In this document: one piece after another, positions 1-13,955 of the stretch
Layout: each line of letters opens with the position of its first letter
How positions within the stretch are numbered: position 1 is the first letter of the stretch
Origin: Escherichia coli
GTDB taxonomy: Bacteria; Pseudomonadota; Gammaproteobacteria; Enterobacterales; Enterobacteriaceae
Reading direction: 5' to 3' (one strand)
Length of the DNA stretch: 13,955 nt
Assembly: GCF_003334765.1 (NCBI RefSeq)
Contig: NZ_QOWT01000055.1
The notes under the pieces: generated by a model
The model's input: only the letters and a program-made list of their open reading frames with translations
What the model was told of the DNA's origin: nothing
The model's database searches: none
Translations under genes and position numbers: made by a program

Positions 1-453
1 CACCGGGGACATCAGCAGGTGCTGTTTGTGGTGACGCAGGCCGACAAAACGGAGCCCTGCCATGAATGGGATATGGCAGGTATTCAGCCTTCTCCCGCAC
101 AGGAACAGAACATTCGTGAGAAAACAGATGCGGTATTCCGGCTGTTCCGGCCCGTACATCCGGTTGTGGCCGTATCGGCCCGCACCGGCTGGGAACTGGA
201 TACGCTGGTCAGTGCGCTCATGACAGCACTTCCCGACCATGCCGCCAGTCCCCTGATGACCCGCCTGCAGGACGAGCTGCGCACGGAGTCTGTCCGGTCT
301 CAGGCCCGTGAACAGTTTACCGGTGCGGTGGACCGGATATTTGACACGGCGGAGAGCGTCTGCATTGCCTCTGTTGCACGCACGGTTCTGCGCGCCGTCC
401 GTGACTCGGTGGTCTCTGTTGCCCGCGCGGTATGGAACTGGATTTTCTTCTGA
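1..453 (+). CDS. yeeP: GTPase of the YeeP/YkfA/YfjP family, C-terminal part (5' end lies outside the window)
   Basis: Frame 1 is open from base 1 to the TGA at 451-453. The translation (HRGHQQVLFVVTQADKTEPCHEWD...) matches my memory of the CP4-island small GTPases, including a TQAD G4-like motif. The position upstream of the island cargo slot is as in K-12 CP4-44. Confidence 0.85.
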   Translation, partial: HRGHQQVLFVVTQADKTEPCHEWDMAGIQPSPAQEQNIREKTDAVFRLFRPVHPVVAVSARTGWELDTLVSALMTALPDHAASPLMTRLQDELRTESVRSQAREQFTGAVDRIFDTAESVCIASVARTVLRAVRDSVVSVARAVWNWIFF

Positions 454-540
454 ACCCGGTGGTGATGTACCAGGCTGTTGTTACAGATTTTTAACTCCAT
501 GAAAACACTATGCAAACGCAGCCATACCCGGGTTGTCCCC

Positions 541-569
541 TTGCGTTGTGTTTCTCAAGTTAATAGAAT
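541..569 (+). promoter_or_regulatory. Sigma70-type promoter candidate: -35 TTGCGT (541-546), 17-bp spacer, -10 TAGAAT (564-569)
   Basis: Read directly from the sequence: 4/6 and 5/6 matches to TTGACA/TATAAT with optimal 17-bp spacing. It lies about 100 bp upstream of the ATG at 671. The predicted start site is around 576. Confidence 0.6.
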
Positions 570-571
570 AC

Positions 572-613
572 ATCGATCGTTACTATCATATCGATCGTTA
601 TAAACGATCGTTT
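572..613. promoter_or_regulatory. Cluster of three GATC-containing boxes (CGATCGTT at 574-581, 592-599, 605-612) with OxyR-like tetranucleotide periodicity; putative Dam/OxyR phase-variation operator
   Basis: GATC occurs at 575-578, 593-596 and 606-609. The 11-mer ATCGATCGTTA is repeated at 572-582 and 590-600. A perfect 12-bp palindrome AAACGATCGTTT lies at 602-613. ATCG-N7-CTAT-N7-ATCG-N7-CGAT (572-608) matches the OxyR consensus ATAG-N7-CTAT-N7-ATAG-N7-CTAT at 13/16 defined positions. Confidence 0.6.
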
Positions 614-670
614 GTAGTAAATGACCTCCTCCGTGGTTGTCATGAAAATGCGTCTTAGGAAGGTTAAATA

Positions 671-3067
671 ATGCACGAAAAGAACATCGCCCTGCTTTGT
701 GATGAAGCCGACCGACTTTTGCAACTGAACATTAATCTGCTCCGGCAAATGGTTGAGGAGCCAGATGTGTTATCTGACAGTAAGAACGAAAACAGACTGC
801 TTTTTGATAAACAGAAAGCACTGAAAAGAATTGAGGAGCTGGAGGGCGAACAAATCAAAACCGCCCGCAGGGAGATGGTGCTGGCTGTTGTCGGCACGAT
901 GAAAGCAGGCAAATCAACCACCATCAATGCCATTGTGGGGCAGGAAATTCTGCCTAACCGTAACCGCCCCATGACCTCTGTACCGACGCTCATCCGCCAC
1001 GTTCCCGGAAAAACTGAGCCGGTTCTCCATCTGGAACATATTCAGCCTGTCCGCAATTTATTAATCACACTGCAGGAAAAACTCGCCACCCCGGCAGGAC
1101 AGCAGGTCGCACAGACCCTGCAGCAAACCGGGGATACCCGCGAACTGCTGGATATTCTGACGGATGATGGCTGGCTCAAAAATGAATACCACGGGGAGGA
1201 GGAAATCTTTACCGGACTGGCATCGTTAAACGATCTGGTTCGTCTTGCTGCGGCAATGGGGACTGAATTTCCTTTTGATGAATACGCAGAAGTGCAGAAA
1301 CTGCCGGTGATCGACGTGGAATTCAGCCATCTGGTGGGGATGGATGCATGCCAGGGAACACTCACACTGCTGGATACCCCCGGCCCTAATGAGGCCGGAC
1401 AACCGCAGATGGAAGTGATGATGCGGGATCAACTGCAGAAAGCCTCTGCGGTTCTGGCTGTGATGGATTACACCCAGATGAACTCAAAAGCGGATGAAGA
1501 CGTCCGTAAAGAGCTTAATGCCATTGCTGACGTATCAGCCGGCCGCCTGTTTGTACTGGTCAATAAATTTGATGAGAAAGACCGCAATGGCGATGGGGCA
1601 GATGCCGTACGCCAGAAAGTTCCGGCAATGCTGAACAGCGATGTGCTGCCCGCCTCCCGCGTTTATCCCGGATCCTCACGCCAGGCATACCTGGCTAACC
1701 GTGCGCTTCATGAGTTACGGAAAAACGGAACCCTTCCTGTTGATGAAGCCTGGGTCGATGATTTTATCAGAGGTGCCTTCGGTTGCATGAAAAAAGAATA
1801 CGTCTGTAAAGACAGTGAACTGGCAACTGAAGGGGCGACAGACCTGTGGGAAGGCTCACTTATCGATCAACTGATAACGGAAGTCATACAGAGCTCACAT
1901 TCCAGAGCTGCGGCACTGGCGGTTGACTCTGCCGCCGCAAAACTGATGCAGAATGCAGAAAATATCAGTGAATACCTGTTGTTACGCCATCAGGGGCTAC
2001 AGCAAAGCATTCAGTCACTGCAGTCGCATATCACCAGCCTGCTTGCGGATATCCGGGAAATCGCGGACTGTCAGGAGCAGATGACCACTGATGTCAGAAT
2101 GGCCATGGAGGAGATCGATACTAAAACCCGGGAATTACTGACGGGGGTCTGCACCTCACTGGAAGAGGAGCTGAATGACTATTTCAGAAGCGGTAAACGC
2201 AAAGAACAGCAAATGCTGGAGGAAGAAGACGCAGAACAACGAAGGTCTCAGTCCGGATTATGGGGGAAAATTTCTCAATGGTCCGGTATCAACAACCAGG
2301 GCCGGGAGGATTACAGGAAACGAGATTTTGCCCCGGACAGCCCCGAAATAAAATTCAGTGATCGCAGGGAAGCCCTTGAACTGATGACGCAAATCGAATC
2401 GACCGTGACCAGCCTGCACCGTGAGGCTGAAGCACAGTTCCGGCCTGAGCTGGAGAAAATCGTCAGCGGGATTGAAACAGGTTTTCGTGGCACGGCCCTG
2501 TACGCCACAGAAAACATTGCCGGTCGCATCAATGCCCGCCTGGAGGATGAGGGCTTTACCGTAAAAATCAGTTTTCCGGCAGTCAGCCAGTTACAGACCC
2601 GGCTCGCGGTAAAAATAAATCTGAGTGCGCTTATGGAGGAAAGAACGGAGACCGTCACCCGTCGCCGTCGGCAGAGTGGCGTATGGGGAACCGTTTGTCG
2701 ATGGTTTGGCACCAGTGACCTGGGCTGGGAAAACTATGACGAGGATGTGAGTCGCAGCGTGATCAATATCAACAAGGTCAGAGAGGAAGTTATGTCACTG
2801 ACCCGGGCATATTTCGGGGAGCTGCAGGCATCCATTGAGCAGGATATTAACCAGCCCGTCCGCCAGGAAATCGATGCCTTTTTCTGCGCATTCAGGGAGA
2901 AAGTTGAACAACTGCGTAACACGCTGATTCAGAGCTCTGAGGATCATAAACGCGATCAGCAGGCGCAGGAACGACTTACCGGGCGACTTCAGGCATTAAA
3001 TGAAAGGGTTCCTGAGCTCATTACTGACAGTAAGGCGCTGAGGGAAGAGCTGGAGACAATGCTGTGA
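671..3067 (+). CDS. Bacterial dynamin-like GTPase, paralogue of CrfC/RdcA (YjdA), 798 aa
   Basis: Long ORF with an AGGAAGG Shine-Dalgarno at 656-662. G1 GTMKAGKST is at aa 75-83 (nt 893-919), G3 DTPG at aa 235-238 and G4 NKFD at aa 298-301. The N-terminal GTPase region (LAVVGTMKAGKSTTINAIVGQEILPNRNRPMT...) closely resembles E. coli CrfC as I remember it. A long helical stalk and a C-terminal coiled coil follow. Confidence 0.9.
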   Translation: MHEKNIALLCDEADRLLQLNINLLRQMVEEPDVLSDSKNENRLLFDKQKALKRIEELEGEQIKTARREMVLAVVGTMKAGKSTTINAIVGQEILPNRNRPMTSVPTLIRHVPGKTEPVLHLEHIQPVRNLLITLQEKLATPAGQQVAQTLQQTGDTRELLDILTDDGWLKNEYHGEEEIFTGLASLNDLVRLAAAMGTEFPFDEYAEVQKLPVIDVEFSHLVGMDACQGTLTLLDTPGPNEAGQPQMEVMMRDQLQKASAVLAVMDYTQMNSKADEDVRKELNAIADVSAGRLFVLVNKFDEKDRNGDGADAVRQKVPAMLNSDVLPASRVYPGSSRQAYLANRALHELRKNGTLPVDEAWVDDFIRGAFGCMKKEYVCKDSELATEGATDLWEGSLIDQLITEVIQSSHSRAAALAVDSAAAKLMQNAENISEYLLLRHQGLQQSIQSLQSHITSLLADIREIADCQEQMTTDVRMAMEEIDTKTRELLTGVCTSLEEELNDYFRSGKRKEQQMLEEEDAEQRRSQSGLWGKISQWSGINNQGREDYRKRDFAPDSPEIKFSDRREALELMTQIESTVTSLHREAEAQFRPELEKIVSGIETGFRGTALYATENIAGRINARLEDEGFTVKISFPAVSQLQTRLAVKINLSALMEERTETVTRRRRQSGVWGTVCRWFGTSDLGWENYDEDVSRSVININKVREEVMSLTRAYFGELQASIEQDINQPVRQEIDAFFCAFREKVEQLRNTLIQSSEDHKRDQQAQERLTGRLQALNERVPELITDSKALREELETML

Positions 3068-4467
3068 CTTCACCATTTATTCAACAAATTGCTGATAACC
3101 GGGTATGTCAGGTACTCACCTGTCTTCCTGAAAAATTTGTGGTTGATTTCGCAAACGGAATCGATGTTGCACAGGAGCATATCCGCACGGCCGGAGAGCG
3201 CACGTTCTTCCGGCGTTTAAAAGAGGGGCTGACCGGCGAAGGCGCTGCACGGCAGAATGCCATCAATGCGTCGCTTGCACAGGGCGTTGAGGCGTCCCTG
3301 CGCTGGCTGACGGAGATGACAACGTCACTTGCCACCACAAACTACGCGATTACCCAGGTAAACGACAGGGTCAGTTCACTGGTCAGTGATACAGCCAGGC
3401 TGGCGCATTATTCCGCAGATACGCGGGAGCAGTTACTCACCCTGGCCGATCAGGTTCACCATAAACTGAATCATCTTGAAGAAAAACTCCACCGTGTTGA
3501 CCAGGTTCAGCGGGCGCAGTTACATCTTGAGCAGATATTCTCATGGTGGAGCGCCGGGCGATATGCGTCATTTTCCCCTGCCGGACGTTGTTATGTGGCA
3601 CTTGAAGAGCTTCGCTGGGGCGCGTTTGGTGATGTGATACGTCAGGGCGAAACAGGCCAGGTTAACCAGCTACTGGATATTCTCAGACATAAAGCATTAA
3701 CGCAGATGGCACAGGAGAGTGGCGGTAGTGCAACCGTGCGTCTGAACACTCTGGACTGGCTTGGTGGTCAGGGCCGGGAGCAGGCAGATAACGAGTGGCA
3801 TGACGCGATTAACTGGCTGGGAGACTGGTGCAGTGAAGAGCAGCATCCGGTGACCCGTGTGCGCGACCCGGGCCGCCGGGGATACACAAAACACATGCTG
3901 CGTCTGCGGCGGGCCGGAGAGATAAACGGAGAACATGTCCCTGAAATTATTCTGCTCAACTCTCATGACGGTACCTCCAGCTACCAGATGCTGCCGGGTT
4001 ACTTCAGGTTCGTCTGCCAGAACGGGTGCGTCTGTGGCCAGTCTCTGGGGGAAGTGCGTGTTCCACACCGGGGAAATGTAGTGGAGAAAGTTATCGAAGG
4101 GGCTTACGAGGTGGTGGGCGTGTTTGACCGGATAGAGGAGAAGCGTGATGCCATGCAGTCGCTGGTCCTGCCGCCACCGGCACGCCAGGCGCTGGCACAG
4201 GCGGCACTGACTTACCGTTATGGTGACGAACATCAGCCCGTCACCACCGCCGACATTCTGACGCCGCGACGCCGGGAGGATTACGGTAAGGACCTGTGGA
4301 GCGCATATCAGACCATCCAGGAGAATATGCTGAAAGGCGGGATTTCCGGTCGCAGTGCAAAAGGAAAACGTATCCATACCCGGGCCATTCACAGCATTGA
4401 TACCGACATTAAGCTCAATCGCGCATTGTGGGTGATGGCAGAAACGATGCTGGAGAGCCTGCGCTGA
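3064..4467 (+). CDS. Chimeric ORF: RdcB/YjcZ-like dynamin-partner domain (aa 1-263) fused in frame to the C-terminal ~204 aa of a DUF932 protein (YfjQ/YafZ family)
   Basis: The GTG start overlaps the upstream stop as GTGA (3064-3067), implying translational coupling. From nt ~3853 (TRVRDPGRRGYTKHMLRLRRAGE...WVMAETMLESLR) the translation matches the YfjQ/YafZ family from about residue 70 to the end, as I recall it. The N-terminal part is coiled-coil rich (RQNAINASL..., YSADTREQL...) like the YjcZ partner encoded next to crfC. Confidence 0.8.
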   Translation: MTSPFIQQIADNRVCQVLTCLPEKFVVDFANGIDVAQEHIRTAGERTFFRRLKEGLTGEGAARQNAINASLAQGVEASLRWLTEMTTSLATTNYAITQVNDRVSSLVSDTARLAHYSADTREQLLTLADQVHHKLNHLEEKLHRVDQVQRAQLHLEQIFSWWSAGRYASFSPAGRCYVALEELRWGAFGDVIRQGETGQVNQLLDILRHKALTQMAQESGGSATVRLNTLDWLGGQGREQADNEWHDAINWLGDWCSEEQHPVTRVRDPGRRGYTKHMLRLRRAGEINGEHVPEIILLNSHDGTSSYQMLPGYFRFVCQNGCVCGQSLGEVRVPHRGNVVEKVIEGAYEVVGVFDRIEEKRDAMQSLVLPPPARQALAQAALTYRYGDEHQPVTTADILTPRRREDYGKDLWSAYQTIQENMLKGGISGRSAKGKRIHTRAIHSIDTDIKLNRALWVMAETMLESLR

Positions 4468-4548
4468 TGCCGTTTCCCTGAGTGAGGGAATCATTCAGCT
4501 TTCGTTCCTGAAAAACACACATTTATTTGTTATTTAAGGAGTTATCTC

Positions 4549-5028
4549 ATGAAAACCGTTTCTCAGAATACCCCCACAATTTATTCAGCTACAACACCAG
4601 AGAATAATCCGCCTCAGTTGGTTGCCAGCCTCGTCCCTGATGAACAGCGCATCAGCTTCTGGCCGCAGCATTTTGGCCTCATTCCACAGTGGGTGACCCT
4701 GGAGCCCCGTGTCTTCGGCTGGATGGACCGTCTGTGCGAAGACTACTGCGGTGGTATCTGGAATCTGTACACCCTGAACAACGGCGGGGCATTTATGGCA
4801 CCCGAACCGGATGACGATGATGGCGAAAACTGGGTACTGTTCAATGCCATGAACGGTAACCGCGCTGAAATGAGCCCGGAAGCCGCCGGCATTGCCGCCT
4901 GTCTGATGACGTACAGTCATCATGCCTGTCGTACGGAGTGTTATGCCATGACGGTCCATTATTACCGGCTGCGGGATTACGCCCTGCAGCATCCGGAATG
5001 CAGCGCCATTATGCGCATCATCGACTGA
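4549..5028 (+). CDS. Antirestriction protein (YfjX/YafX family, ArdB/KlcA-like)
   Basis: 159-aa ORF with an AAGGAG Shine-Dalgarno at 4536-4541. The sequence and its position between DUF932 and the RadC-like gene are typical of CP4-type islands. Confidence 0.85.
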   Translation: MKTVSQNTPTIYSATTPENNPPQLVASLVPDEQRISFWPQHFGLIPQWVTLEPRVFGWMDRLCEDYCGGIWNLYTLNNGGAFMAPEPDDDDGENWVLFNAMNGNRAEMSPEAAGIAACLMTYSHHACRTECYAMTVHYYRLRDYALQHPECSAIMRIID

Positions 5029-5043
5029 ATGGAGGCAGGGACA

Positions 5044-5520
5044 ATGCAACAACTTTCCTTTCTGCCCGGAGAGATGACGCCCGGCGAGCGCAGCCTCATT
5101 CAACGGGCCCTGAAAACCCTGGACCGCCATCTTCATGAACCCGGCGTGGCCTTCACCTCCACCCGTGCAGCACGGGAATGGCTGATTCTGAACATGGCGG
5201 GACTGGAGCGTGAAGAATTCCGGGTGCTGTATCTGAATAACCAGAATCAACTGATTGCCGGTGAAACCCTCTTTACCGGCACCATCAACCGCACGGAAGT
5301 CCATCCCCGGGAAGTGATTAAACGCGCCCTGTACCACAATGCCGCTGCCGTGGTACTGGCACACAATCACCCGTCCGGTGAAGTCACACCCAGTAAGGCA
5401 GACCGGCTTATCACCGAACGTCTGGTACAGGCACTGGGCCTGGTGGATATCCGGGTGCCGGACCATCTGATAGTCGGTGGCAACCAGGTTTTCTCCTTTG
5501 CCGAACATGGTCTGCTTTAA
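5044..5520 (+). CDS. yeeS: RadC-like JAB/MPN domain protein (YeeS/YkfG/YfjY family)
   Basis: JAMM-type motif HNHPSGEVTPSKAD. GGAGG at 5031-5035 lies 8 nt before the ATG at 5044 (MQQLSFLPGE..., the N-terminus I remember for this family). The ORF track's earlier ATG at 5029 is an alternative start. Confidence 0.9.
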   Translation: MQQLSFLPGEMTPGERSLIQRALKTLDRHLHEPGVAFTSTRAAREWLILNMAGLEREEFRVLYLNNQNQLIAGETLFTGTINRTEVHPREVIKRALYHNAAAVVLAHNHPSGEVTPSKADRLITERLVQALGLVDIRVPDHLIVGGNQVFSFAEHGLL

Positions 5521-5582: not shown

Positions 5583-5804
5583 ATGAAAATTATCACCCGT
5601 GGTGAAGCCATGCGTATTCACCAACAACATCCGACATCCCGTCTTTTTCCGTTCTGTACCGGTAAATACCGCTGGCACGGCAGTGCTGAAGCGTATACCG
5701 GTCGTGAAGTGCAGGATATTCCCGGTGTGCTGGCCGTGTTTGCTGAACGCCGTAAGGACAGTTTTGGTCCGTATGTCCGGCTGATGAGCGTCACCCTGAA
5801 CTGA
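5583..5804 (+). CDS. yeeT: DUF987 protein YeeT
   Basis: The 73-aa ORF (MKIITRGEAMRIHQQHPTSRLFPFCTGKYRWHG...) matches K-12 YeeT/YkfH family length and sequence from memory. Its position is conserved. Confidence 0.9.
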   Translation: MKIITRGEAMRIHQQHPTSRLFPFCTGKYRWHGSAEAYTGREVQDIPGVLAVFAERRKDSFGPYVRLMSVTLN

Positions 5805-5877: not shown

Positions 5878-6246
5878 GTGTCAGACACACTCCCCGGGAC
5901 AACACTTCCCGACGACAATCACGACCGCCCCTGGTGGGGGCTGCCCTGCACCGTGACGCCCTGTTTCGGGGCACGTCTGGTGCAGGAGGGTAACCGGTTG
6001 CATTACCTTGCCGACCGCGCCGGTATCAGAGGCCTGTTCAGCGATGCAGATGCGTACCACCTGGACCAGGCCTTTCCGCTGCTGATGAAACAACTGGAAC
6101 TCGTGCTCACCAGCGGTGAACTGAATCCCCGCCATCAGCATACCGTCACGCTGTATGCAAAAGGGCTGACCTGCAAAGCCGATACCCTCAGCAGTTGTGG
6201 TTACGTTTATCTGGCTGTTTATCCGACGCCCGAAATGAAAAATTAA
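5878..6246 (+). CDS. cbeA: Type IV antitoxin CbeA (YeeU)
   Basis: 122 aa with a GTG start and an AAGGA Shine-Dalgarno at 5866-5870. The sequence is near-identical to K-12 CbeA as recalled (SDTLPGTTLPDDNHDRPWWGLPCTVTPCFGARLVQEGNRLHYLADRAG...). Confidence 0.95.
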   Translation: MSDTLPGTTLPDDNHDRPWWGLPCTVTPCFGARLVQEGNRLHYLADRAGIRGLFSDADAYHLDQAFPLLMKQLELVLTSGELNPRHQHTVTLYAKGLTCKADTLSSCGYVYLAVYPTPEMKN

Positions 6247-6334: not shown

Positions 6335-6709
6335 ATGAAAACATTACCTGTATTACCCGGGCAGGCGACCAGTTCTCGCCCGTCTCCTGTTGAAATCTGG
6401 CAGATACTGCTGTCCCGACTGCTGGACCAGCACTATGGCCTCACACTGAATGACACACCTTTTGCCGATGAACGTGTGATTGAGCAGCATATTGAGGCAG
6501 GCATTTCACTGTGTGATGCGGTGAACTTTCTCGTGGAAAAATACGCGCTGGTGCGTACCGACCAGCCGGGATTCAGCGCCTGTACCCGCTCTCAGTTAAT
6601 AAACAGCATCGATATCCTCCGGGCTCGCAGGGCGACCGGCCTGATGACCCGCGACAATTACAGAACGGTAAATAACATTACCCTGGGTAAGTATCCGGAG
6701 GCGAAATGA
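6335..6709 (+). CDS. cbtA: Type IV toxin CbtA (YeeV), inhibitor of FtsZ/MreB polymerisation
   Basis: 124 aa (MKTLPVLPGQATSSRPSPVEIWQILLSRLLDQHYGLTLNDTPF...), near-identical to K-12 CbtA as recalled. It lies immediately downstream of cbeA. Confidence 0.95.
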   Translation: MKTLPVLPGQATSSRPSPVEIWQILLSRLLDQHYGLTLNDTPFADERVIEQHIEAGISLCDAVNFLVEKYALVRTDQPGFSACTRSQLINSIDILRARRATGLMTRDNYRTVNNITLGKYPEAK

Positions 6710-6900
6710 TGACACTGGAAGCCGACAGCGTTAACGTACAGGCGCTGGATATGGGGCACATTGTCGTTGACATTGATGGTGTTAATATCACTGAACTGAT
6801 TAATAAGGCCGCTGAAAAAGGTTATTCACTCCGCGTGGTGGATGACCGTGACTCTACCGAAACACCGGCAACTTATGCCAGCCCTCACCAGTTGCTGTAA
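6706..6900 (+). CDS. yeeW: YeeW-family small protein
   Basis: 64-aa ORF whose start overlaps the cbtA stop as ATGA (6706-6709). It matches K-12 YeeW/YpjJ family length and position. Confidence 0.8.
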   Translation: MMTLEADSVNVQALDMGHIVVDIDGVNITELINKAAEKGYSLRVVDDRDSTETPATYASPHQLL

Positions 6901-7314: not shown

Positions 7315-7450
7315 TTATTTATTGGTGAGAACTACGTTCCATGGCAGGAGTTCGTCAACACGGTTGGAGGGCCATTCCGGCAGTATGCTCAGAATATGGC
7401 GCAGATACGCTTCCGGATCGATACCGTTCAGACGGCAGGTGCCTGCTTTT
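7315..7450 (-). mobile_element. C-terminal remnant of an IS66-family transposase
   Basis: The minus-strand translation ...GTCRLNGIDPEAYLRHILSILPEWPSNRVDELLPWNVVLTNK* ends at the TAA at 7317-7315. This is the characteristic C-terminus of IS66-family TnpC proteins. The upstream boundary is approximate. Confidence 0.7.
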
Positions 7451-7469
7451 CCGGCAACAAGCAGGAATC

Positions 7470-7697
7470 TCAGCGCTGAAGCAGGAATTAGAGGTAAAAA
7501 CGCCCTACCGGGCCATGAATCACCCGGTCATTGGAGTAGTAACCAAAGCAGATTTAGCCAGCATGGAACAAATATCTTTGGTGAAAAGTTGGTTACGGGA
7601 AGCTGGAGCGCACAACGTGTTAGTAACCAGTGCAGTTAATAACAATGGAGTTACAGAACTTTTTGCCTTGCTGCATACAGAAGAAGGCTGTTGTTAA
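7470..7697 (+). pseudogene. yoeF: C-terminal fragment of a EutP/PduV-family GTPase (yoeF-like pseudogene)
   Basis: The translation ...YRAMNHPVIGVVTKADLASMEQISLVKSWLREAGAHNVLVTSAVNNNGVTELFALL... resembles the C-terminal half of PduV/EutP. No P-loop N-terminus is present. The upstream part of the 118-aa ORF is antisense to the IS66 remnant. The start coordinate is approximate. Confidence 0.65.
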
Positions 7698-11887: not shown

Positions 11888-11959
11888 GGCATCCGCTACA
11901 TTAAGCGCAGAGAAATGATGCAGTGGTGGGCGGACTGGCTTGATGAAAAGGTGGAGTGA
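11888..11959 (+). pseudogene. 3' remnant of a P4-type (IntA/IntS-like) tyrosine integrase
   Basis: The in-frame translation GIRYIKRREMMQWWADWLDEKVE* carries the RR.MMQ.WADYLD C-terminal signature of P4-family integrases. An in-frame TGA lies immediately upstream (11885-11887). No catalytic domain is present. Confidence 0.6.
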
Positions 11960-12411
11960 ACCACCTTAGCTATCGAATGACACAAAGCCTTGTAATCCAG
12001 TGCAAAGTCTTGTGTGCCTCAGTTTTGTCTAAGCGTTCTACTGAAACATAGTAAAATCGATAACGGCTGGAGATCATTCAATATCCGCACTATTGACTCC
12101 CCTCCAATAAACCGTGTAACGTACACCGTTTATAAGACAACCAAACAATAATAGAGCGAGTGAAATCATCAGTCTCAAATACCATTTATTGACGCAATAC
12201 TATCCAGTTCTGAACTAAATGACATAATTCGGTAATTAAATTAATGCATCGACATACCTTATAGATACGCCCCAATAATATAATGCTAATCCTCTTTGAA
12301 TAGAAAACGTTCAATACTCCTCACTAAATAGCATAGTATTTATATCTTCCCTTACAAAAAAAATTAAGGCATAATAATAAGCTTCCTTTAACGCTAGATA
12401 TTGAGGTTTGT

Positions 12412-12540
12412 ATGTATCGCAGCATCGCAGCATTTAACACATTTTGCTTTTCATTGGTATTTATTTCATTAGCAAATGATATATATTACCAATTAAAACA
12501 CTCGTCATCTCTCAATACATATATTTCCTATGCATTTTGA
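12412..12540 (+). CDS. 42-codon ORF with one hydrophobic segment, in the same frame as the downstream 359-aa gene (possible severed N-terminus)
   Basis: GAGG at 12403-12406 lies 5 nt before the ATG. The translation is MYRSIAAFNTFCFSLVFISLANDIYYQLKHSSSLNTYISYAF*, with TGA at 12538-12540. Only three sense codons (GGG ATT GCC) separate that stop from the ATG at 12550, in the same reading frame. Confidence 0.35.
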   Translation: MYRSIAAFNTFCFSLVFISLANDIYYQLKHSSSLNTYISYAF

Positions 12541-12549
12541 GGGATTGCC

Positions 12550-13629
12550 ATGACATACAATACTATATTCAAAATATACATCTCAATTTTCATTTCTGTT
12601 ATTGTCACTATAATAGCCATATCCGGTATAACATTCCTGGGGGACAACTGGATTATTCCAGACACATATCATCTATTTAATACTGCAAAATATGATACCA
12701 CATTTTCACTCAGCGATATTTATTCCCAGCATAAAACATCTGTTTTATTTCTCTTTATAAACAAAGTGCTCTATAGCATAGGGTTATATTCTTTCTGTAT
12801 CGCGAACACAGCAATGATTATCTATGCTTTTTTCAAACATCACGAAGACCGTAGATTTTGTTTTGTGTTTTTGGTTTTGTCACCTCTATTTTTCATTAAT
12901 ATACCGTTACCATCCAAAGATATAATGGTGACATTTCTTTTTTGCATATGGGTATATGCAGTTTACTCTGAGGCAAGCCTGACAAAAACAATCCTGCTGT
13001 CTTTAATCATCCTATTAGTTAGAGATGGCTTTGGGATAATTTTAATTGCCACTTCAATTATCTTAAAACAAAAGATAATATATAAAGCACCAATACTACT
13101 GATTATAATAGCAACTCTCATCGCATCTTTAATATCGGATGTTTTGCCTAACTATGCAAATGACTTTTTTCTGTTCCAGAGAGTAATTGATATAGCCAAT
13201 GAATATAATAGTTCAAGTTATATTCTTCGTATATTTGGGAATGTAACAAATTTCTCATCACGCAACCCATTGATTACTGATAAGTCCACATTAAACATTA
13301 CATTTATGTGCTATACAATCACGGGAGTTACTATATTGAGTACATTCCTTCTTTCAATTAAAGCAATACGTTCAAATTATAAAAGTGATGTCAGAATATC
13401 ATTTTGTTATTTTTTAATTACCATTGCTTTTTCTATTTCACCACTTATTCAAGCAAGATACATGGCTCCGTTAATTTTAATGCCGACATTTTATAAGTGT
13501 ATTTCAAAAAAAGATGTCTTTATTTGCTATATGGCAAGCATATTTATCTCAATAATATTATCATTATTATATGTATATTTAGGTGTTTACCCTGAAAAAG
13601 CACCAGTGGAAAACTTTACAATAAATTAA
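12550..13629 (+). CDS. Polytopic inner-membrane protein (about 10-12 predicted TM segments), function unknown; Wzy/EpsG-like or GT-C/GtrC-like surface-polysaccharide enzyme is a hypothesis
   Basis: An uninterrupted 359-codon ORF in very AT-rich DNA, where random stops are frequent. GAGGGA at 12539-12544 lies 5 nt before the ATG. Hydrophobic stretches alternate with short charged loops, plus two larger loops (aa ~31-64 and ~200-250). No acyltransferase-3 N-terminal motif was seen. Confidence 0.8.
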   Translation: MTYNTIFKIYISIFISVIVTIIAISGITFLGDNWIIPDTYHLFNTAKYDTTFSLSDIYSQHKTSVLFLFINKVLYSIGLYSFCIANTAMIIYAFFKHHEDRRFCFVFLVLSPLFFINIPLPSKDIMVTFLFCIWVYAVYSEASLTKTILLSLIILLVRDGFGIILIATSIILKQKIIYKAPILLIIIATLIASLISDVLPNYANDFFLFQRVIDIANEYNSSSYILRIFGNVTNFSSRNPLITDKSTLNITFMCYTITGVTILSTFLLSIKAIRSNYKSDVRISFCYFLITIAFSISPLIQARYMAPLILMPTFYKCISKKDVFICYMASIFISIILSLLYVYLGVYPEKAPVENFTIN

Positions 13630-13646
13630 CAAGAGAAAACCACCTA

Positions 13647-13696
13647 TGGCACCATCTCACAATAATAATATGATAAACATATTAGAGATGGTGCTA
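13647..13696. terminator. Stem-loop between convergent genes (possible shared terminator)
   Basis: GCACCATCTC (13649-13658) and GAGATGGTGC (13685-13694) are exact reverse complements, extendable by T-A and G-T pairs. The loop is 26 nt and AT-rich. No clear U-tract. Confidence 0.35.
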
Positions 13697-13747
13697 CTCC
13701 GAGCCACCCACAAGCAACACATTGAATTTATTCCAAAATAATTCATC

Positions 13748-13955
13748 TTATACTTCATAAAGGGCAGGCCAGATGACATCAGGCGCGGTGCTGGTATCTG
13801 TTGCCGCCACCGCGTCAATGTAATCCAGCACAGCGTTAAGCCGGGTGGTTTCTGCCTGCGTCAGCTTCCGCCCGGCCTGTAATTTCAGCTGAATCAGACT
13901 GATGGAAGCCATTGCAGCATCAATCAGCGACTGGCGCTTTACTTCTGCCGCGTCT
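13748..13955 (-). CDS. Phage tail fibre assembly protein (Tfa family), C-terminal 68 aa (5' end outside the window)
   Basis: The minus-strand translation is DAAEVKRQSLIDAAMASISLIQLKLQAGRKLTQAETTRLNAVLDYIDAVAATDTSTAPDVIWPALYEV*, with stop at 13750-13748. The ...L..W..Y...L..VDTSTAPDI.WP ending is the hallmark of TfaE/TfaQ-type chaperones. Confidence 0.8.
   Translation of the reverse strand, partial: DAAEVKRQSLIDAAMASISLIQLKLQAGRKLTQAETTRLNAVLDYIDAVAATDTSTAPDVIWPALYEV

Follow-up and report, generated by a model that had tools for sequence, protein, structure and literature searches.

A deletion derivative of a three-gene dynamin–RdcB–patatin operon, with a putative agn43-type promoter, in a CP4-44-type island of Escherichia coli

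The stretch of DNA analyzed here (the window; 13,955 nucleotides of contig NZ_QOWT01000055.1 from E. coli) contains, at positions 671–4467, the gene of a dynamin-like GTPase followed by an overlapping second open reading frame (ORF). Alignment to intact relatives makes it almost certain that this interval is a deletion derivative of a three-gene operon that encodes the GTPase, an adaptor of the RdcB/YjcZ family, and a patatin-like phospholipase; the copy in the window is an ordinary decay product. The explanation that we favor as a whole, with a probability of about 0.6, joins the decay of this copy with a mechanism by which the GTPase and adaptor of intact operons would license the phospholipase, and with a putative expression switch in the promoter region. 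The features of the interval are the following:

671–3067, + strand: intact gene of a dynamin-like GTPase of 798 residues, RdcA/CrfC family, patatin-linked clade (Pfam, NCBIfam, sequence identity, AlphaFold2 (AF2)/Foldseek)
3064–3853, + strand: 5′ 87% (codons 1–263 of 301) of an RdcB/YjcZ-family adaptor gene, translationally coupled to the dynamin gene (identity to the reference locus L002, Pfam YjcZ)
3852–3853, no strand: junction of a 2,856-bp in-frame deletion with a 2-nt ‘GA’ microhomology (alignment to L002)
3854–4467, + strand: 3′ three-quarters (codons 70–273) of a DUF932 gene, forming the in-frame C-terminal part of a chimera (identity to L002, Pfam)

The reference, L002, is from E. 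coli 23CRST032, the closest complete genome, which is 99.7% identical to the window over positions 1–3853. The stop codon of the dynamin gene (TGA, 3065–3067) overlaps the GTG start codon of the second ORF (3064–3066), as had been pointed out (GTGA at 3064–3067) in a preliminary description of this DNA. The 467-residue product of the second ORF (3064–4467) falls into two parts. Residues 26–267 align with positions 1–243 of the 272 positions of the Pfam YjcZ profile (192 bits), and residues 263–456 align with positions 35–227 of the 227 positions of the DUF932 profile (PF06067). In agreement with this division, residues 1–263 are 100% identical to the first 263 residues of the 301-residue RdcB-family protein of the reference, and residues 264–467 are 100% identical to residues 70–273 of its DUF932 protein. 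The window and the reference are collinear on both sides of positions 3852/3853 (window positions up to 3853 correspond to L002 at an offset of +8000, and those from 3852 onward at an offset of +10856), and 2,856 bp of the reference are missing. The parent genes of the fusion lie ∼2.9 kb apart in the closest relatives. The deletion removed the last 38 codons of the adaptor gene, the gene of a 356-residue patatin-like phospholipase, two small ORFs, and the first 69 codons of the DUF932 gene. Because 2,856 is divisible by three, the fusion ORF stays open.

The lost adaptor tail contains the motif MPRLCSAxRL..M..EIF, where conservation between the island adaptors and K-12 RdcB is highest; their identity is otherwise 27–31% (31% for the intact relative). 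Intact relatives match the YjcZ family (PF13990) over profile positions 1–272, whereas the window contains no full-length match to this family. DUF932 is likewise not a separate full-length gene here, since only profile positions 35–227 are present and these are fused to the adaptor. The arrangement of three co-oriented genes that overlap or abut is incomplete in the window, with the patatin gene and the 3′ end of the adaptor gene gone. The partner that the preliminary description had coupled to the GTPase does begin as an RdcB/YjcZ homolog; the ORF as a whole, however, is an RdcB′–′DUF932 chimera. DUF932 had been taken as the downstream boundary of the island slot and in fact lies inside 671–4467, and the proposed two-gene module gives way to a conserved unit of three genes, the third of which has been deleted.

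A search for the junction in 5,426 complete E. coli genomes and 80 metagenome loci gave no match. In an assembly collection of 153 billion gene positions, the exact 467-residue chimera occurs on one contig, from assembly GCA_965137835.1, which has 30 differences from the window across 12.4 kb. The presence of the chimera in a differing, independent assembly indicates that the deletion is real and inherited in a small lineage and is not an artifact of assembly. Because the effector is gone and the adaptor is truncated and fused, the window copy as a system is most likely inert. That the dynamin gene is intact does not speak for retained function, as an undamaged gene is expected after a recent deletion; the flanks of the junction are 99.3–99.7% identical to the intact relative. 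The GTPase/partner pair of the window is a remnant, unsuitable as it stands for phage or cyclic di-GMP (c-di-GMP) assays.

Three other readings of the interval were weighed against this one. An assembly artifact that conceals an intact operon in the true genome is hardly credible: the junction is unique among complete genomes, and up to five operon copies per genome can mislead short-read assemblers, but the joint is a clean 2-nt microhomology between two dissimilar sequences, which is not a typical site of repeat collapse, and the second assembly carries the identical chimera. We consider just as improbable that the island cargo is an intact, working module of two genes, a dynamin GTPase and a dedicated coupled partner. 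Both ORFs are open and overlap by 4 bp, and the first 263 residues of the partner belong to a bona fide RdcB/YjcZ homolog, yet the deletion has fused two unrelated genes into this partner, which lacks the conserved C-terminus; the exact protein occurs on only the one contig described above, its junction is absent from complete genomes, and close relatives with downstream DNA carry patatin as a third gene. A remnant that is still active would be less surprising, although we regard it as improbable too. The dynamin, alone, with chromosomal RdcB, or with the chimera, would then cross-talk with DgcE/c-di-GMP or the membrane, or the DUF932 fusion would provide a new function. The dynamin ORF is indeed undamaged and represents the commonest allele, the promoter region is intact, and the G domain is ∼48% identical to that of RdcA, which works through direct protein contacts. 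However, overall identity is just 33% to RdcA, and 31% between the RdcB-like protein and RdcB, an undamaged dynamin is what a recent deletion would leave behind, the frame continuity of the chimera has a one-in-three probability by chance, and no expansion of a lineage with the chimera is seen in the complete genomes, the metagenome loci, or the assembly collection.

In intact relatives (L001, L002, and L008), the genes are arranged in the order dynamin (798 residues), RdcB-like adaptor (301 residues), and patatin-like phospholipase (356 residues), with 4-bp overlaps. The 4.4-kb operon is covered to at least 80% in 2,443 of the 5,426 complete E. coli genomes (45%), with up to five copies per genome, and is present only in part in a further 170. 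Copies on IncF plasmids of E. coli, Klebsiella, and Enterobacter, with 58% dynamin identity and flanking insertion sequences (IS), contain the same three genes, mostly overlapping, without the CP4 backbone. Metagenome loci were found by an alignment-based scan and with hidden Markov models (HMMs) built from the operon proteins. Close metagenomic relatives with enough downstream DNA all have the full-length adaptor and patatin; 11 loci with 32–55% dynamin identity, on contigs of 47–63% GC, keep the three genes, mostly overlapping, and ∼14 loci contain dynamin and adaptor without patatin. A protein search with the window dynamin returned only E. coli proteins of at least 93% identity, and a scan of genome contigs with this single protein found only E. 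albertii. A search with a 41%-identical homolog reached Pseudomonas spp., including P. aeruginosa, as well as Methylomonas, Gallionella, Vogesella, and Cupriavidus, and in all seven named genomes the Dynamin_N, YjcZ, and Patatin domains are encoded consecutively. The patatins of the relatives keep the GGGxxG Gly-rich loop, the GxSxG motif (GASIG), and DGG, and have no signal peptide. Judging from this conservation, the dynamin, adaptor, and patatin genes constitute one unit, with patatin as the likely effector.

The frequency of the operon also bears on the preliminary description of the module as ‘undescribed’, which goes too far: its genes carry PGAP family names in 45% of complete E. coli genomes, and a 2026 transcriptome paper (PMC12922286) names the operon as a putative dynamin phage defence and calls its regulation undescribed. 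The operon genes are also listed on an O118 island (PMC13182975). In a table of a study of olaquindox-evolved E. coli ATCC 25922 (PMC7696260), 122 ‘mutations’ are given for crfC, 75 for the patatin gene (rssA), 10 for yeeP, and 3 for yjcZ; for this very gene set, such counts resemble the outcome of reads mis-mapped among paralogous island copies more than that of selection.

Two groups of small ORFs follow the patatin gene in different lineages. The two ORFs found in E. coli (227 and 136 residues) were rejected as components of the operon; they have no Pfam or PADLOC match, are absent from L001, and are not homologous to the 253–268-residue ORF that follows patatin in Pseudomonas-type loci. 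The latter, which has no Pfam family, lies directly 3′ of patatin in P. aeruginosa, Metapseudomonas, and one metagenome locus (L091 13395–14156, L096 13396–14157, and L058 11409–12215). The copies of the two pseudomonads are 72% identical and those of distant loci 29–31%, and in certain lineages this ORF may represent a fourth component.

A second decayed copy is found at the same chromosomal site in E. coli BE2-5 (L009, NZ_CP032986.1, 7985–11727), whose island decayed independently. This copy has lost the dynamin gene and the 5′ end of the adaptor gene and retains patatin and the two small ORFs; its DUF932 gene lacks the 3′ end and is joined with a fragment of DUF957. BE2-5 and the 170 genomes with only part of the operon suggest that loss of the module is piecemeal and repeated.

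The 798-residue protein, which starts at an ATG codon, contains the complete set of G motifs. G1 is GTMKAGKST (residues 75–83, with K81 as the P-loop lysine), the G2 threonine is T102 within NRNRPMT, and DTPG (G3) and NKFD (G4) are located at 235 and 298, respectively. It matches the Pfam Dynamin_N profile with an E-value of 2.8e-18 and 66.9 bits (cut-off 27) and is 33% identical to K-12 RdcA (E 9e-121), with ∼48% identity in the G domain (residues 57–442). The protein is 100% identical to a cluster of 6,762 member sequences, which is the commonest allele. An AF2 model based on 112 diverse homologs (mean pLDDT 77.7, pTM 0.64) comprises the G domain followed by very long helices (447–527, 565–626, and 700–759). 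When this model was compared with the PDB using Foldseek, the best matches were SynDLP (7zw6), BDLP (2j69), IniA (6j72), mitofusins, and Cj-DLP1/2, with E-values of 8e-13 to 1e-7 and a probability of 1.00 at 11–16% sequence identity; the global TM-scores are low (0.24–0.31) because the conformations differ. A sequence profile search against the PDB recovered only the P-loop region of BDLP (1.9e-7). By its G motifs and its predicted stalk and fold, the protein is a dynamin-superfamily GTPase, which bears out the G1/G3/G4 motifs, K81, the helical stalk, and the CrfC/dynamin kinship read earlier from the sequence. It is nevertheless not an equivalog of CrfC/RdcA, judging from score and tree position: the match to the NCBIfam CrfC equivalog model (NF007368; 556 bits, E 1e-166, residues 1–797) remains below the cut-off of 1146, and the protein falls outside the RdcA clade.

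All patatin-linked dynamins have in common an insert of ∼40–50 residues (residues ∼514–556) that the RdcA clade lacks. In the AF2 model, it falls in a low-confidence loop (528–550) between the antiparallel helices 447–527 and 565–626, so that by topology the insert loop would lie at the far end of a helical hairpin, the position of the paddle in BDLP. The loop includes a short patch of Gly, aromatic, and aliphatic residues, which all patatin-linked homologs conserve in kind and the RdcA clade does not have. The 798-residue protein shows neither a defined paddle nor a transmembrane segment, and membrane binding via the insert loop is a hypothesis suggested by the model.

In a midpoint-rooted neighbor-joining tree of the dynamins, the patatin-less pairs form a single clade that includes K-12 RdcA; all others, which are more diverse, are patatin-linked. 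The tree thus does not fit the earlier proposal of a horizontally transferred CrfC paralog; instead, the chromosomal RdcA/RdcB pair appears to be one patatin-less branch of a larger effector-coupled family. RdcA (CrfC/YjdA) and RdcB (YjcZ) of K-12 belong to the same two families and are encoded in the same order with a 4-bp overlap. The island dynamin has the G1–G4 motifs, including the lysine and threonine that were mutated in RdcA, and the intact island adaptors keep the C-terminal motif of RdcB. RdcA is a GTPase that is inhibitory in its GTP-bound state, senses GTP versus (p)ppGpp, and is recruited to the membrane; together with RdcB, it activates the membrane enzyme DgcE, a diguanylate cyclase, through direct contact (PMC6510439; PMC13463826). 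The pair is the likely template for a GTPase and adaptor that switch on a partner enzyme. The two systems differ in that the proteins are only 33% and 31% identical, respectively, and the island clade adds the patatin gene and the stalk-loop insert. In addition, the island operon is mobile and strain-variable, with an agn43-like switch, whereas RdcA/RdcB is a core operon under FlhDC/FliA. If RdcA/RdcB–DgcE is a branch of an effector-coupled family, this may help to explain how RdcA and RdcB work.

The preliminary description had also placed the GTPase gene behind a putative phase-variable promoter. This proposal gains support from the alignment of the segment upstream of the dynamin gene with the K-12 yeeP–flu regulatory region:

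541–609, + strand: agn43-type promoter with a candidate Dam/OxyR switch (alignment to the K-12 yeeP–flu regulatory region)

The elements are a −35 hexamer TTGCGT (541–546), a −10 hexamer TAGAAT (564–569), which is common to both sequences, and GATC sites at 575–578, 593–596, and 606–609. The hexamers were assigned by visual comparison with the agn43 alignment; a consensus promoter scan did not call the agn43-like pair and called a weaker overlapping one. The same scanning flagged the palindrome formed by the second and third GATC sites as ‘terminator-like’, which we regard as a by-product of the repeated CGATCG. The sites are spaced by 18 and 13 bp, compared with 19 and 13 bp in K-12, and the pattern GATC-N14-GATC-N9-GATC occurs once in the window versus 0.01 times expected by chance. 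The three sites are found at −96, −78, and −65 in most of the examined loci of the E. coli clade, among them E. albertii and alleles that carry substitutions close by, and a query consisting of the promoter region and the dynamin start is covered to at least 80% in 1,979 of the 5,426 genomes. A further group of ∼12 E. coli-clade copies with 88–95% dynamin identity (L029, L045–L050, and L052–L054) has a completely different upstream region without GATC; this alternative region is seen ∼125 bp before the dynamin start. The operon is therefore served by two or more promoter types.

At agn43, Dam methylation of three GATC sites competes with OxyR binding, which results in heritable ON/OFF expression (PMC4872104). 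The window has the corresponding arrangement, with three GATC sites in a homologous, OxyR-site-sized segment just past the −10 hexamer. Given this homology, the operon is probably subject to Dam/OxyR phase variation in E. coli. Similarity to the agn43 (flu) switch extends to the same slot of the same island, and the spacing of the sites is near-identical. The differences are that the window promoter drives an operon for a cytoplasmic GTPase and not an autotransporter adhesin, that the distance from the first to the second GATC site is 1 bp shorter, and that the long agn43 leader (isrC region) is absent. The operon, present on two islands of E. coli MP1 and strongly expressed in one lineage of this strain, showed the strongest up-regulation of any gene set in a lysogen (PMC12922286). 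The Kapi1 lysogen comparison in that paper involved two colonies from each of two clonal lineages. Provided that the three-GATC switch is present in the MP1 copies, the up-regulation could represent a difference in phase state between the lineages and not cross-talk with the prophage.

A defence role of intact copies is made plausible by their gene neighborhoods, which is suggestive evidence of the guilt-by-association kind. This part of the preliminary description holds for the intact relatives, while the copy in the window is a remnant without an effector. A WYL-WCX/BrxR regulator is encoded within a few genes of the operon in six of the seven named genomes, and in Vogesella and Gallionella it lies directly upstream on the same strand. 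Other neighbors in these genomes include GmrSD, a NERD helicase, SIR2, a ZorA-like protein, PIN toxin–antitoxins, and an integrase. With a self-built WYL HMM, six of 11 distant metagenomic triads were matched, and one weak match was obtained among the patatin-less pairs. Altogether, a WYL protein is found nearby in 12 of 18 distant loci. WYL-WCX/BrxR regulators close to or immediately upstream of the operon are located as follows:

L094, 7768–8799
L095, 8041–8973
L064, 5540–6637
L067, 331–1362

Further loci with a nearby WYL/BrxR regulator are L058, L059, L074, L076, L091, L093, L096, and L097. Among these, L058 has an adjoining operon for WYL, ZacB-like, and SNF2-helicase proteins, and L074 has a NERD-UvrD helicase. 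In E. coli C6 (L001), yeeP is adjoined by a type I restriction-modification system. Island copies in E. coli have the GATC switch and no WYL/BrxR regulator, which looks like a swap of regulatory logic.

Combining these observations, we propose that the GTPase of intact operons would read the state of the cell, either GTP versus (p)ppGpp, as RdcA does, or perturbation of the membrane via the stalk-tip loop, or both. Upon disturbance of the nucleotide pool or the membrane by infection, the GTPase and adaptor would license the cytoplasmic patatin, which would attack the inner membrane as a phospholipase, with an anti-phage response of the abortive-infection type as the outcome. Expression in E. 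coli islands would be bistable, ON or OFF, through Dam/OxyR competition, and in other proteobacteria it would be governed by a WYL/BrxR regulator instead. The licensing model has parallels in RdcA/RdcB, which activate DgcE, and in CapV as an effector of CBASS. We put the chances that intact operons defend through a phospholipase in this way at about even. The operon family would then be a dynamin- and phospholipase-based defence with RdcA/RdcB-type activation, noticed before and annotated, though uncharacterized. The proposal in its full form is more tentative and, in our view, rather doubtful: the intact operon would be an uncatalogued, widespread anti-phage system in which GTPase and adaptor unleash patatin, under bistable control in E. 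coli, so that just a fraction of the cells would bear the cost, and under WYL/BrxR control in other proteobacteria, and RdcA/RdcB–DgcE would be its domesticated, effector-swapped offshoot. An operon present in almost half of the sequenced E. coli and in many proteobacteria thereby gains a concrete model, a likely role, and likely regulation.

Several known systems are related to this proposal. Eleos (LeoA/LeoBC) also has a dynamin-superfamily GTPase encoded in defence islands, its defence depended on the GTPase P-loop (bioRxiv 10.1101/2022.05.11.491447), and the dynamin of one distant triad (L058) matches the PADLOC LeoA stalk (6e-12). However, Eleos consists of two dynamin-like proteins, without a lipase or a YjcZ protein. 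The window operon was rejected as an Eleos system: it has one dynamin gene, which scores 19.8 bits against LeoBC (E 8.6e-5) with no stretch passing, and no LeoA match. CBASS with CapV resembles the intact copies in its effector, a cytoplasmic patatin with the Gly-rich loop, GxSxG, and DGG, and regulators of the WYL/CapW-BrxR type adjoin many copies of the operon; the operon differs in that it contains no cyclase or nucleotide-signal gene, and the presumed activator is the GTPase/adaptor pair. The similarity to BDLP, SynDLP, IniA, and Cj-DLP1/2 is one of predicted architecture, a G domain and long helical hairpins with a distal loop. PADLOC scans of the dynamin, the chimera, the intact adaptor, the patatin, and neighboring hypothetical proteins gave nothing above noise, so the operon could not be assigned to a catalogued defence system.

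A number of points weigh against the explanation that we favor. The copy in Methylomonas (L092) and the tested neighbors in L070 and L059 are set among housekeeping and transport genes, and the survey of neighborhoods comprised 18 distant loci with no formal background comparison. A search of 50,697 phage records gave no homolog, and that set therefore offers no phage-encoded counterpart on which to base an argument. PADLOC v2 has no model for the operon, and its best scores are 19.8 bits for the dynamin to LeoBC and 19.8 bits (9.9e-5) for the patatin to a CBASS phospholipase. No experimental paper on the combination of dynamin, RdcB, and patatin was found in the full-text literature, the coverage of which largely excludes subscription journals. 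The stalk-tip patch is modestly hydrophobic (about 5 of 11 residues, ∼45%, versus 31% overall), and its placement at the tip was read from the order of secondary-structure elements and not from coordinates. Midpoint rooting cannot settle whether three or two genes are ancestral, and in the window the intact GTPase gene could keep some activity alone. The main competitor for the intact operon is a function outside defence, in membrane-lipid remodeling or repair, stress, or host interaction, with the island location reflecting mobility only. Links of bacterial dynamins with membrane repair and with the formation of vesicles have been reviewed (PMC12922286), some copies are set among housekeeping or transport genes, PADLOC gave no defence-model match, and operon-bearing islands also hold virulence and adhesin genes. 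We nevertheless consider this function unlikely, since the operon is recurrently associated, at a cross-phylum level, with WYL/BrxR regulators and with restriction, helicase, and toxin–antitoxin genes, the patatin has no secretion signal, and carriage is patchy and strain-variable with repeated independent decay, as is typical of costly defence cargo.

The operon is embedded in the backbone of a CP4-44-type island, which contains the following features in the window:

1–453, + strand: 3′ end (last ∼150 codons) of a yeeP-type small GTPase gene
4549–5028, + strand: antirestriction gene (Pfam)
5029–5520, + strand: RadC/YeeS gene (Pfam)
5583–5804, + strand: DUF987/YeeT gene (Pfam)
5878–6246, + strand: CbeA gene (Pfam)
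6335–6709, + strand: CbtA gene (Pfam)
6706–6900, + strand: YeeW gene (Pfam)

Positions 1–453 are 96.4% identical to the K-12 yeeP pseudogene and 97% identical to a ‘GTPase family protein’ gene of L001; in L090, the yeeP-type gene is full-length and encodes a protein of 290 residues with an MMR_HSR1 domain. From yeeS onward, the backbone is 98.8% identical to K-12 CP4-44. Relative to K-12, the flu (Ag43)–yeeR segment of CP4-44 is swapped for window positions 457–5067, with flanks that are 96–99% identical. By this alignment, the operon is cargo in the slot filled by flu/Ag43 and yeeR in K-12. The island context given in the preliminary description, namely the cargo slot of a CP4-type island with a YeeP-family GTPase gene upstream and antirestriction and toxin–antitoxin genes nearby, is thus borne out. 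Rfam and tRNA scans of the window gave no match.

Two further regions of the window lie beyond the backbone genes. At 7341–7697 and 7322–7639 (both + strand), an ORF matches only the C-terminal third of the EutP/PduV GTPase domain (profile positions 86–142 of 143). This ORF is the counterpart of K-12 yoeF, at the right edge of CP4-44, and is a gene fragment; in relatives, it is adjoined by a transposase remnant. Past dacD, positions 11,900–13,955 form a low-GC block (29–33% GC versus ∼50% elsewhere), in which an ORF at 12550–13629 (+ strand) encodes 359 residues with no Pfam match. In BE2-5, DNA 100% identical to this block is followed by a tail-fibre assembly gene, prophage remnants, an integrase gene, and sbcB. 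Because phage genes and an integrase gene follow the same DNA there, the block looks like the edge of a degraded prophage with a cargo gene of no recognized family.

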